A stretch of DNA of 64,000 nucleotides from a virus. Shown in pieces: positions 12,022 to 15,209 of this stretch. The position numbers and the translations under genes are program-made. Every line of letters starts with the position of its first letter. Position 1 is the first letter of the stretch. The DNA lies in the IMG/VR virus record IMGVR_UViG_3300027800_000004, positions 12,345-76,344 of that record. The stretch is one strand, 5' to 3'. The notes under the pieces are model-generated. The model saw only the letters and a program-made list of their open reading frames with translations, was not told the DNA's origin and did no database searches.

Positions 12022-13206
12022 TTAAGTATCATCAAATTCATCATAATCCCATTCAAATTCATCTTCTGTTGCCAGTAGAAACATGTTTATTGGCGTAGAT
12101 GTCGGTGTGCCTAATGCCAGTCCCAAAAAAGCTGGTAAGGAAATTCCACTACCCGTTACAATCGGGAGAGGAATTGTAATAACCAGAGTTGTTAATTCTG
12201 TCTGTAAAAGCGTATTGGTTTCATAGGCCCTCTCTTCAGCACTAAACTTATCAATTTCTTCAACCAAAAACCATGTTGACGGATCCTGACTGCTCCTGCC
12301 GATGATCTTGATCTTCCTGACCTCCTCTGTCCCGGTGTTTACCCTAATCTTAAGATAATTGTTTAGTGAAATAACCTCTGTGGCCAATCCTGTTGCTATC
12401 TCTTCCTCTCCGTTGGGCATTGCCACTATACAGGCCGGAGAATAGGTACTCTCTCTCCAGTCCATGTAAACATAGTTATACGCAAACTGAAAGAGAGTCT
12501 GTCTTAAGTTATTAATTTTTCGTGTATCATCAGTCTGATATTCAACTGTAGGAGCAAGTTTGGGTGGCATTGGGGCAAAGTAAAAATTCTCCACCTTCAT
12601 GGTGTAATAGCAATCTTCTACCATACAAAGTCTGGTCCAATATGCTGTCCATGCAATAGGATTATAACCGATGTTAGATATCACGCATTTGTACATGTAT
12701 TTGCCTTCCGAAATGATCTGGTTCTCATAGTAATAAATATCATCAGTCCATTCGGTAATGCTTGTGTTTTGACCATATCCTATGCCGTGATAATATGAGG
12801 TCTTTGCTCTCTCAATGTCTATCTGGTAGATCGGGTTCAGGTTATCAGTCCATATTATCTTTCCATTGATAATTCTGGCATTATAGATTTTATAATCCTC
12901 GTCAAAACCTATTGAATTTGCAGCATCATAATAGACAACATTTTGCGCCCTGGTGTCTATGTCCACTTCTATTATCCATGCTGCATGATAATAATTATCA
13001 ATGTAGAAGAGATATAATTTCCTATTCTCCGGATCAACACATTTACCATTTAGCAAAATGTTTGAGACATACGAATCAACTTCCGGAAACGGACCGGGAG
13101 ATGACCGTAATAACCTCACAGATAGATAGTGAGATTTTAAAGCAAAAGAATTTATTGCTTCTCCACTATTATGTGCCAGGTCTATTGTCTGTACAAGTTG
13201 TCCCAT
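12022..13206 (-). CDS. Tail stabilization (muzzle) protein, middle fragment, with FISUMP C-terminal strands at its N-terminus and a CBM5/12-like insert (394 aa)
   Basis: IIWTDNLNPIYQIDI, FQFAYNYVYMDWRESTYSP and NTGTEEVRKIKI motifs; N-terminal ...ALKSHYLSVRLLR; internal EWTDDIYYYENQII...YKC...YW. Confidence 0.75.
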   Translation of the reverse strand: MGQLVQTIDLAHNSGEAINSFALKSHYLSVRLLRSSPGPFPEVDSYVSNILLNGKCVDPENRKLYLFYIDNYYHAAWIIEVDIDTRAQNVVYYDAANSIGFDEDYKIYNARIINGKIIWTDNLNPIYQIDIERAKTSYYHGIGYGQNTSITEWTDDIYYYENQIISEGKYMYKCVISNIGYNPIAWTAYWTRLCMVEDCYYTMKVENFYFAPMPPKLAPTVEYQTDDTRKINNLRQTLFQFAYNYVYMDWRESTYSPACIVAMPNGEEEIATGLATEVISLNNYLKIRVNTGTEEVRKIKIIGRSSQDPSTWFLVEEIDKFSAEERAYETNTLLQTELTTLVITIPLPIVTGSGISLPAFLGLALGTPTSTPINMFLLATEDEFEWDYDEFDDT

Positions 13207-13208
13207 TT

Positions 13209-15209
13209 TTATGGTGTATCGCCCCAGAATATGTCAAGTAAAAATGCTTCCGCAAGTAACTCTATCTGAGCATCTGTTAATACAATTCCCGATTTAATTA
13301 TTCCTATTGCTGTAATTTCATACGGTGGACTATCGGAATATCTGACAACCGTTCTATGATAATTAAAGTCAACGAGATCTCCAGTAGTCACTTGTTCCTG
13401 TACTCCGGCACCGGTAAACCATAAGTTGTCCTCGTCATCCAATATAAAGTCAGGAGAACTTTCTAGTACAAATAATGAGCCTGAAGAATATGGAATATAA
13501 TTGGTTGCAAAATCTCTCACCAGGATTGCTATTCTTCTTCCGTCTGTTGCACTTATTAAGTGATCGCTTTCTATTTCTCCAATCCACAGGAAATCTAAGA
13601 GATCTATTACGCTTCCCCAGGCCAGAAGATTTATCAGAACGATTGCATCTTGAGTTATAAGATGATAGTAAGATGTCATGCCGGATCCATCTGGTGCTGC
13701 ATTGGTCCCTGACAAGTCTAGCCTATCACCAAGTCTCCATTCCCCTACTCCCGTAACCGCATCAAATGTTGTAAGGAATAAACTAACGCTGGTAGATATA
13801 AGGTTATTGTTTAAGAAATCATAGTTCCGTTGGCCTGCAACATCTGTACCCCATGTCGCATAAGGAGTAACCGAGTCCAGAAGATTTTCAGATGCGTTAA
13901 GTATCCTAAGTTTTGGTAATGATGCCGGTAATGTGAGGATTAGTAATTCATTATTCCGCAAATCGAGTATTTCAAGATCTGCAATAGTGAGAGTATTGAC
14001 AATAAAATTGATTAATGAATTATCATTTGCAATAAAGGACTGCCACAAAACTGTTCCTGTCGGGAATACGATATTATTAATGTTATTATTGGAAATATCA
14101 ATCGTTCCAAATCTTGATAGGTAAGTCATACTTATCGCAATCAGATTATTATTGGAGATATCAAACTTACCTGCGTTGGTTCTCCATGTATATGGAACTG
14201 ATATTGCCGTTAATAGATTGTCTGATAGATCTATCTCTGCATAATCTGTCAATGATCCAAATTTCCATGTTTGTAGTGAAATACTTGTTAATAAATTTGA
14301 GGACAGATCAATTTTCTCAAGACTTGTACAAACAGGAGATATTGTGATACTCGTTATTTCTACTTCATCTGCGACAATAGATTTAAGATGTGAGCAGTTA
14401 TAAATATTAATGGTTCCACCACCGGCCAGATAGGTGTGTTTAATTGCTATTGGCACATCATCAAGAAAATACATCTGGCCAACACCATCTCCCCAATCTA
14501 TATATATAAATCCATCTCCGGTTAATGTCATTTCAAATTCACCGTCAATGGATGTTACTATAACTACATGTATCAAAATACTCGGTACAATTTCATCATA
14601 TAACCAAAATTGAGTTCTGGTCTTTAGTAACTCATAACCAAAATCTCCATATTTCCCTGCTCCAAGTGCCGAAAAACCGTATGAGTCAACTGCATCTGTG
14701 TTTGGAGCCAGCCACCGGACTTCGCCAGGTACTTTTAGTTTGCCTCCGGCTGTTGCCTGTCCTCCAAGATGATTGAATAAGATAAGCCAGTCTGCCAGTG
14801 ATGCTATCTTCCATCCATCAGGACAGAATCCCGGTTGGTGGATCATCTGCCAATTATAGAGGCCGCCATAAATATCCCTGTTTGCCTCAATATCTCCATA
14901 AACCTTTGATCCGAAATAATTCCTGGCATAGTTCTTCTTCATCCAGGTCTGGGTGCCTATTGTTACACTCTCATATCCTTCATAGACAAACCCTCCTCCA
15001 ATAGAACCTCCATAATAAGTTGGTAGAATAGCGTCAATAATCAGTTCTACCTCACCCTGTAATGTCTCCATAATACCAATGCCCTGCTGCTCCTCGCTTG
15101 AGGCAACGCGCATGTTTAAGGCATCGGTATATTCGCCTGGCTGAAGATCGGCAGGGTTATCGTCCTTATTAAGACCTATGTTAAACCTATGGAGGTCCTT
15201 GTTCTGCAT
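13209..15209 (-). CDS. Muzzle N-terminal segment fused to a truncated FISUMP (Fib_succ_major) domain, a PKD-like domain and leucine-rich repeats (666 aa)
   Basis: FNIGLNKDDNPADLQPGEYTDALNMR is the typical stabilization-protein N-terminus; VTIGTQTWMKKN...YGGLYNW...CPDGWKI...AGGKLK...GFSAL matches FISUMP; IDWGDG; LxxIDLSxNxL repeats. Confidence 0.8.
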   Translation of the reverse strand: MQNKDLHRFNIGLNKDDNPADLQPGEYTDALNMRVASSEEQQGIGIMETLQGEVELIIDAILPTYYGGSIGGGFVYEGYESVTIGTQTWMKKNYARNYFGSKVYGDIEANRDIYGGLYNWQMIHQPGFCPDGWKIASLADWLILFNHLGGQATAGGKLKVPGEVRWLAPNTDAVDSYGFSALGAGKYGDFGYELLKTRTQFWLYDEIVPSILIHVVIVTSIDGEFEMTLTGDGFIYIDWGDGVGQMYFLDDVPIAIKHTYLAGGGTINIYNCSHLKSIVADEVEITSITISPVCTSLEKIDLSSNLLTSISLQTWKFGSLTDYAEIDLSDNLLTAISVPYTWRTNAGKFDISNNNLIAISMTYLSRFGTIDISNNNINNIVFPTGTVLWQSFIANDNSLINFIVNTLTIADLEILDLRNNELLILTLPASLPKLRILNASENLLDSVTPYATWGTDVAGQRNYDFLNNNLISTSVSLFLTTFDAVTGVGEWRLGDRLDLSGTNAAPDGSGMTSYYHLITQDAIVLINLLAWGSVIDLLDFLWIGEIESDHLISATDGRRIAILVRDFATNYIPYSSGSLFVLESSPDFILDDEDNLWFTGAGVQEQVTTGDLVDFNYHRTVVRYSDSPPYEITAIGIIKSGIVLTDAQIELLAEAFLLDIFWGDTP

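Follow-up and report, generated by a model that had tools for sequence, protein, structure and literature searches.

Two adjacent genes that appear to share one FISUMP domain

We analyzed 64,000 nt of the IMG/VR virus record IMGVR_UViG_3300027800_000004 (positions 12,345 to 76,344; this whole stretch is the window, and its numbering is used below unless another locus is named) and focused on two neighboring open reading frames (ORFs), one of 666 aa (13209..15209) and one of 394 aa (12022..13206), between which a single FISUMP domain appears to be divided. All of the genes discussed are on the minus strand. Among 50,697 records of known phages, we found no match by blastn and tblastn.

The 666-aa protein starts with an N-terminal anchor (aa 1-81, 14967..15209) that is common to all relatives in alignment A3. 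The anchor is followed by a truncated FISUMP domain (aa 82-206, 14592..14966), which ends with FWLYDE and is without the last ~30 residues of the fold, and then by a variable cassette of 460 aa (aa 207-666, 13212..14591). The gene boundary reads TAA-AA-ATG (13204..13211), such that the 394-aa ORF starts as MGQLVQTIDLAHNSGEAINSFALKSHYLSVRLLRSS two nt after the stop of the 666-aa ORF and in a different frame. Its first 36 residues (13099..13206) constitute a donor peptide homologous to the final FISUMP strands (ALKSHYLSVRLLR), and ~aa 45-325 (12232..13074) form a muzzle core with the first beta-propeller blades and an immunoglobulin (Ig)-like domain.

The cassette consists of a small beta-rich module, leucine-rich repeats (LRRs) at ~aa 295-450, and a C-terminal part of ~190 aa whose fold is not assigned. 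The original prediction, made from the sequence alone, had placed ~460 aa of PKD, LRR, and other sequence between the two FISUMP pieces; its length and its LRRs stand, but the PKD domain has no support from Pfam, which matches only LRR_4 (E 1.7e-7) and LRR_8 in aa 207-666. In a ~90% identical strain (run X6), one contig is without 112 nt within the LRR region (window 14171-14284), a difference that could stem from a varying number of repeats or from the assembly.

Likeness of the peptide to the absent end of FISUMP

In the 666-aa ORF, aa 82-204 are recognized as Fib_succ_major (Pfam PF09603; E 8e-18, 65.8 bits against a cutoff of 33.9); the match covers profile positions 1-153 of 187, so no single polypeptide spans the whole profile. 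As predicted, the domain ends with QFWLYDE at aa 206 (nt 14592). From 377 complete domains in unrelated multi-FISUMP proteins, we built our own FISUMP hidden Markov model (HMM; 212 positions) and found that its alignment to the window domain stops at about position 172 with 116.0 bits. Adding the native continuation leaves the score at 116.0 bits, whereas joining residues 2-60 of the 394-aa protein raises the score to 127.4 bits (+11.4) and extends the alignment to position 208. In comparison, joins with shuffled peptides (n = 50) score 118.5 ± 1.1 bits with a maximum of 120.7, which places the true join at z 8.3.

The same behavior was found in all 11 loci that were scored: joining adds 10-22 bits, reaches HMM position ~209 of 212, and beats 50 of 50 shuffles in each. 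The native continuation yields no gain across these loci except in L015, where a second FISUMP begins at this point; in 7 of the 10 loci other than the window, the continuation is a Pro-rich linker. When 82 homologous N-termini were used as a profile, hhalign placed them on FISUMP columns 179-207 of 210 (E 1e-5, probability 82%), and the spacing from the first aligned strand to SVRxxxD is exactly 31 residues in both the peptide and FISUMP. By these comparisons, the likeness of the peptide to the end of FISUMP exceeds chance. The claim of the original prediction that the missing terminal strands open the next gene is supported, and with it a FISUMP domain divided between two genes.

The split has a fixed layout in related phages

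From IMG/VR and metagenome contigs of related phages, we recovered 25 distinct junctions. Homologues of the 394-aa protein form 90 clusters that all begin at the same point, with M and 3-9 residues followed by (I/Y)(L/F)SLSYDSAxAxKxxALKxxxxSVRLIKD; S29, R31, and L32 of the donor peptide are invariant, as is the SVR motif. The longer homologues (574-600 aa) carry their extra length at the C-terminus and not at the N-terminus. The commonest residue has a mean frequency of 0.71 in the peptide (residues 5-35), compared with 0.75 in the core, 0.47 in the linker, and 0.36 in the C-terminus, which points to selection on the peptide.

On the upstream side, essentially every locus with a complete gene has the same anchor, a FISUMP cut at HMM positions 170-181 (FWLxDE), a cassette, and a stop, and FISUMP ends at HMM positions 172-176 in 12 of 12 homologues with the same anchor. 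The cassettes of the relatives are mutually unrelated (fn3, LRR, Lcl_C, or complete extra FISUMP domains) and span 467-2715 nt. Across the 25 junctions, the distance from stop to start is -8 to +9 nt, with TAATG or ATGA frequent; the stops are TAA in 18, TGA in 4, and TAG in 3; and both genes use the same frame in only 5.

Some loci depart from this layout or duplicate it. At L014 (4139-6001, on a contig shared with L164), a single in-frame stop splits the cassette into an fn3 part and two Lcl_C domains, and three consecutive ORFs precede the 394-type gene. Loci L147, L148, and L161 are the same locus found three times on the 216-kb contig C687J13896_1000012 at a spacing of 72,083 nt; the simplest reading is that a ~72-kb phage genome was assembled in concatemer-like form. 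A MAFFT alignment (A5) placed the upstream anchor motif GLNKDDNPADL...ALNMRVASS on the donor peptide SLSYDSA...SVRLIKD with a loose common pattern; this match is probably an alignment artifact.

Unsplit and widely separated forms occur naturally

We found forms in which the domain is not split. In the partial protein P0086, an uninterrupted FISUMP without a cassette leads directly into the 394-type module. In P0102 (861 aa) and L130 (~1,200 aa), the anchor, truncated FISUMP, an Lcl_C cassette, the peptide, and the 394 module lie in one ORF without a stop, and hmmsearch finds FISUMP in P0102 as two pieces: residues 68-218 (HMM 13-181) and residues 384-416 (HMM 178-210).

We also found the two halves far apart. 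The genes adjacent to the truncated FISUMP of L030 gave no HMM completion, and a search of the L030 record (76% complete) for the 394 family was empty; the donor was later found via L154, which is the same phage (L030 6001-12618 and L154 1-7001; 99.97% identity over 3.7 kb). Here, the socket gene and the peptide gene are 5.6 kb apart, and the three genes between them encode proteins of 460 aa (fiber-like), 209 aa, and 1212 aa (beta-helix). The peptide is nonetheless conserved, and joining it completes the HMM and raises the score from 121.9 to 138.6 bits. These variants form a natural series that can be read as an evolutionary one, from a form without an insert, through an in-frame nested insert and adjacent split genes, to split genes that lie apart.

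The peptide fits the FISUMP fold in a single-chain relative

We modeled P0102, the natural unsplit form, as a single chain with AlphaFold; this protein has ~48-52% identity to the window proteins. In the first run (A2), the N-terminal half had a predicted local distance difference test score (pLDDT) below 50, which is uninformative for a clasp because the alignment was shallow there; the peptide was at 45-58 despite high alignment depth at the peptide, and the adjacent muzzle module was above 87. For the second run, the alignment was enlarged by 37 complete viral FISUMP domains, which aligned cleanly across the cassette gap. Residues 80-215 then reached pLDDT 88-98 and the peptide (381-410) reached 94-97, with peptide strands at 379-390, 396-400, and 406-408; the final strand of the upstream FISUMP piece runs on to residue 213.

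A structural search of the second model against the whole PDB returned FGE/C-type-lectin-like folds that align over residues 74-417 with 146-152 aligned residues. The matches include CarF 5aoh_B (Z 9.2, root-mean-square deviation (rmsd) 3.4, 150 aligned), TvpA 2y3c_A, a variable protein of a diversity-generating retroelement (DGR; Z 8.4, 148 aligned), PvdO (Z 8.0), and the C-terminal domain of Lcl (Z 7.4). Since more residues are aligned than residues 80-215 can supply, the peptide lies within the FGE-like domain of the model. Of the two outcomes named beforehand as refuting the original prediction, neither occurred: the N-terminal peptide extends the HMM alignment, and the model of the relative is compatible with the peptide completing an FGE/C-type-lectin-like fold. 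Sequence searches of the PDB with the 394-aa and 892-aa ORFs (the latter described below), the profiles A1 and A3, and a complete FISUMP gave nothing meaningful.

Both proteins resemble parts of a crAss-like muzzle

We found several links to the muzzle protein of crAss-like phages. The virion protein family phrog_14478 (1474 positions) matches the 394-aa ORF at profile positions 164-278 (E 6.9e-16) and an 892-aa ORF (6101..8779) at positions 964-1134 (E 9.6e-23), with no match in the 666-aa ORF. In the P0102 model, residues 427-702 align with residues 68-270 of the phicrAss001 muzzle gp44 (7qol_P; Z 10.7, rmsd 3.9, 188 aligned), and gp44 7qok_A is matched with Z 9.8. Residues 1-38 of the 666-aa family align with residues 1-38 of gp44 (hhalign E 5e-4, probability 30%), and the FISUMP of P0102 starts at residue 68, the point where the gp44 match resumes. 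The anchor of the 666-aa protein is thus probably a crAss-type muzzle N-terminus as judged from its sequence, and the PHROG, structural, and N-terminal gp44 matches taken together make it very probable that the 666-aa and 394-aa proteins are parts of one muzzle protomer and meet in the virion.

In the window, the muzzle pieces are found in three ORFs (666, 394, and 892 aa), the second and third of which flank an ORF of 929 aa, and no single polypeptide of ~1,300-1,500 aa is present. With BLASTP, the 892-aa ORF matches the C-terminal portion of phicrAss001 gp44 weakly and collinearly, and it looks like a third muzzle piece. The 929-aa ORF is pectate-lyase-like (9229-12018), and its last 195 residues (aa 734-928) share 35% identity (E 2e-28) with a C-terminal extension; most relatives, e.g., P0004, have this extension directly fused onto their 394-type module. 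Hence, a beta-helix cassette seems to have been inserted there too, near 12022-12231, with a gene boundary again falling inside the ancestral protein.

Among other genes near the muzzle genes, a 258-aa upstream ORF gave no significant BLASTP match to the phicrAss001 ring protein gp43. Several tail-fiber-like or beta-helix-like proteins adjoining the muzzle genes have a signal-peptide-like hydrophobic start (e.g., MKWLIFIMLLLPPILSAQ), which is unusual for virion proteins; these are at 17733-18857 in the window, at 7754-9136 and 9230-9859 in L030, and at 6918-8282 in L019.

A proposed clasp between two chains of the tail tip

We consider it likely that the two proteins are two chains of one crAss-like tail-tip (muzzle) protomer in which FISUMP is re-formed in trans as a clasp. 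Chain A (666 aa) would comprise the muzzle N-terminus, FISUMP minus its last ~30 residues, and the displayed LRR cassette, and chain B (394 aa) would begin with those ~30 residues and continue into the muzzle beta-propeller. The N-terminal strands of chain B would insert into the FISUMP of chain A, so that trans beta-strand complementation clasps the chains and leaves the cassette exposed at the tail tip; the tight coupling of stop and start would favor equimolar synthesis.

As to its history, an ancestral single muzzle protein probably gained FISUMP just after its N-terminal ~70 residues. A binding-domain cassette would then have entered FISUMP at a fixed loop ahead of the last strands, and in most lineages a stop with a tightly coupled restart would have arisen at the distal end of the cassette. 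A cassette that carries its own stop would have to be in frame on its 5' side only, which may ease exchange; the sufficiency of one in-frame junction may therefore explain both the dominance of the split state and the diversity of the cassettes.

A bolder form of this proposal is that the complemented FISUMP is no mere passive clasp: it could be a general plug and socket by which exchangeable receptor-binding cassettes are attached to the muzzle, and it could further act as a mechanical latch, in which glycan binding by the cassette or by FISUMP would strain or release the donor strands and so open the muzzle. The donor strands would lead straight into the gating beta-propeller, which would couple receptor recognition to muzzle opening. 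We regard this extension as speculative and improbable.

Several points weigh against the clasp. Docking in trans is drawn from single-chain proxies, the modeled protein is a relative of the window's own pair, and the alignment of the second run already encodes the homology among FISUMP domains; hence, the second model indicates compatibility and is not an independent proof. The gain from joining in the window is the second smallest of the set, and against our own HMM the peptide by itself scores only 1.7 bits in the window and 5-9.5 bits in the relatives; searched alone against Pfam, it gave no match, as a query of 42 aa is filtered out. For L019, no donor gene was found among the adjacent genes or by a search of its record, which is 33% complete, for the 394 family. 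The N-terminal 81 aa of the 666-aa protein gave no match in the PHROG search, and the hhalign match of this anchor to gp44 is weak.

Alternative explanations

The main remaining rival to the clasp is that the split is an evolutionary relic: FISUMP would be broken for good, and the peptide would have been kept for another reason, e.g., for the muzzle fold or for translational coupling. The low scores of the isolated peptide fit a relic, and the truncated FISUMP is stable enough to have persisted in L019 without a detected donor. However, the peptide retains both the FISUMP-specific pattern and the FISUMP length (31 residues up to SVRxxxD) and is conserved like the core. Moreover, it was not confidently packed on the muzzle module in the first model but was modeled with high confidence together with FISUMP in the second, and there are natural unsplit forms, whose domain has to close up around the inserted cassette. 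We therefore judge a relic to be unlikely, though it deserves more weight than the other alternatives. FISUMP might instead be closed in cis, without a partner, by the beta-strands with which the cassette begins (in the window, IVPSILIHVVIVTS). The window cassette does begin with hydrophobic, beta-prone sequence, and the extension of the last upstream FISUMP strand to P0102 residue 213 in the second model is in line with such a closure, but the HMM score does not rise with the native continuation, which in most of the other loci is the Pro-rich linker (PEPPVAL, PTPPITL) that leads straight into fn3. Completion in cis is hence very improbable.

We give least credence to removal or skipping of the cassette, whether by splicing, bypassing, DNA excision, or stop read-through or recoding, to yield a fused FISUMP-muzzle protein; the original prediction had proposed to look for such a product, lacking ~13195-14585, a hint that is not supported. 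Deleting the 1394 nt between the two copies of TTGTAC (14585..14590 at the upstream border and 13191..13196 at the downstream border) would indeed fuse the window genes in frame, and reassignment of stop codons has been described for crAss-like phages (PMC12386605). The two copies do share codon phase as had been pointed out, with the caution that the repeat may be fortuitous. By shuffling, both copies are a chance match, with P ~0.15 for an in-phase 6-mer, and no significant in-phase border repeat occurs in any of 9 related loci (shuffle P 0.13-1.0). The imperfect complementarity between the borders, which had been reported with the same caution, is weaker than average, with an RNA duplex of -12.0 kcal/mol compared to -14.2 ± 3.1 for shuffled sequences. 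The intervening DNA, read in the frame of the upstream gene, codes for folded binding domains (LRR, fn3, and Lcl_C in the window and relatives) and not intein or homing-endonuclease motifs, and Rfam gave no intron or other relevant RNA family for 11500-16000 (E <= 1), only a chance miRNA match on the other strand. The match of take-off and landing sites for bypassing of the T4 gene 60 type is at chance level and not conserved, and the gaps to be bypassed would be 467-2715 nt. Since the frames differ in 20 of the 25 junctions, read-through or stop reassignment is rejected as the fusing route; furthermore, 18 of the 25 stops are TAA, and in L030/L154 three genes lie between the halves. DNA contigs from four freshwater runs, among them those of the ~90% identical strain, span both borders, and no joint that would skip the cassette was seen; such contigs show the presence and not the absence of joints. 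Involvement of a DGR is likewise rejected: no second copy of 13081-13215 that could be a DGR template repeat was found in the window; a reverse transcriptase was not searched for.

Comparison with known systems and significance

A close known likeness to a clasped, two-chain tail tip is the Pseudomonas podophage A1002, whose nozzle is split into nozzle-rope gp39 and nozzle-base gp42, which complete each other's platform and propeller domains with beta-strands as determined by cryo-electron microscopy (PLoS Biol 2026, PMC13730344). In both cases, a tail-tip protein is partitioned, strands of the partner fill incomplete domains, and the genes are clustered. However, the A1002 seam runs through the platform and propeller and was seen directly, whereas the seam that we infer here lies in an inserted lectin-like FISUMP, where a swappable cassette ends, and it is found again and again, at 25 junctions. 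Nested domain insertions and variable length are also known for the phicrAss001 muzzle gp44 (7QOK/7QOL; Nature 2023, PMC10172136). The 394-aa family matches gp44 residues ~66-270 (Z 9.8-10.7) and has phrog_14478 in common with the 892-aa ORF, but gp44 is one chain of 1371 aa without FISUMP; here, the muzzle extends over at least three genes and includes an inserted FISUMP, LRRs, and a pectate-lyase-like beta-helix.

The domain itself belongs to the same sequence family as the Fib_succ_major/TIGR02145 (FISUMP) domains of Fibrobacter and Bacteroidota, including DGR targets, and the fold modeled for P0102 resembles TvpA and other FGE-like proteins. Ordinary FISUMP domains are contiguous, as in the 377 complete copies that we collected, in contrast to the split domain of the window. 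In mechanism, the proposed clasp is analogous to donor-strand complementation in chaperone-usher pili, in which an incomplete beta-fold is closed by the N-terminal strand of the next subunit to give very stable non-covalent joints. The analogy ends there; the pilins are Ig-like, of unrelated fold, and not from phages, and no chaperone is involved here.

Overall, we conclude that the feature is a split tail-tip protein, probably joined by a common domain, with the seam in an inserted lectin-like domain at the site of cassette swapping. Gene boundaries in phage tail modules can cut domains without destroying them, and in annotation such genes are to be paired rather than labeled truncated or hypothetical. 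The variants provide a natural series for a structural protein becoming a multi-chain complex. If the clasp in trans is true, a peptide of ~35 residues and a socket of ~125 would together make a compact natural split-domain pair that could serve as a tag for protein ligation or display. For the phages themselves, a fixed socket that bears unrelated binding cassettes suggests that environmental crAss-like phages carry a host-range module of this kind.

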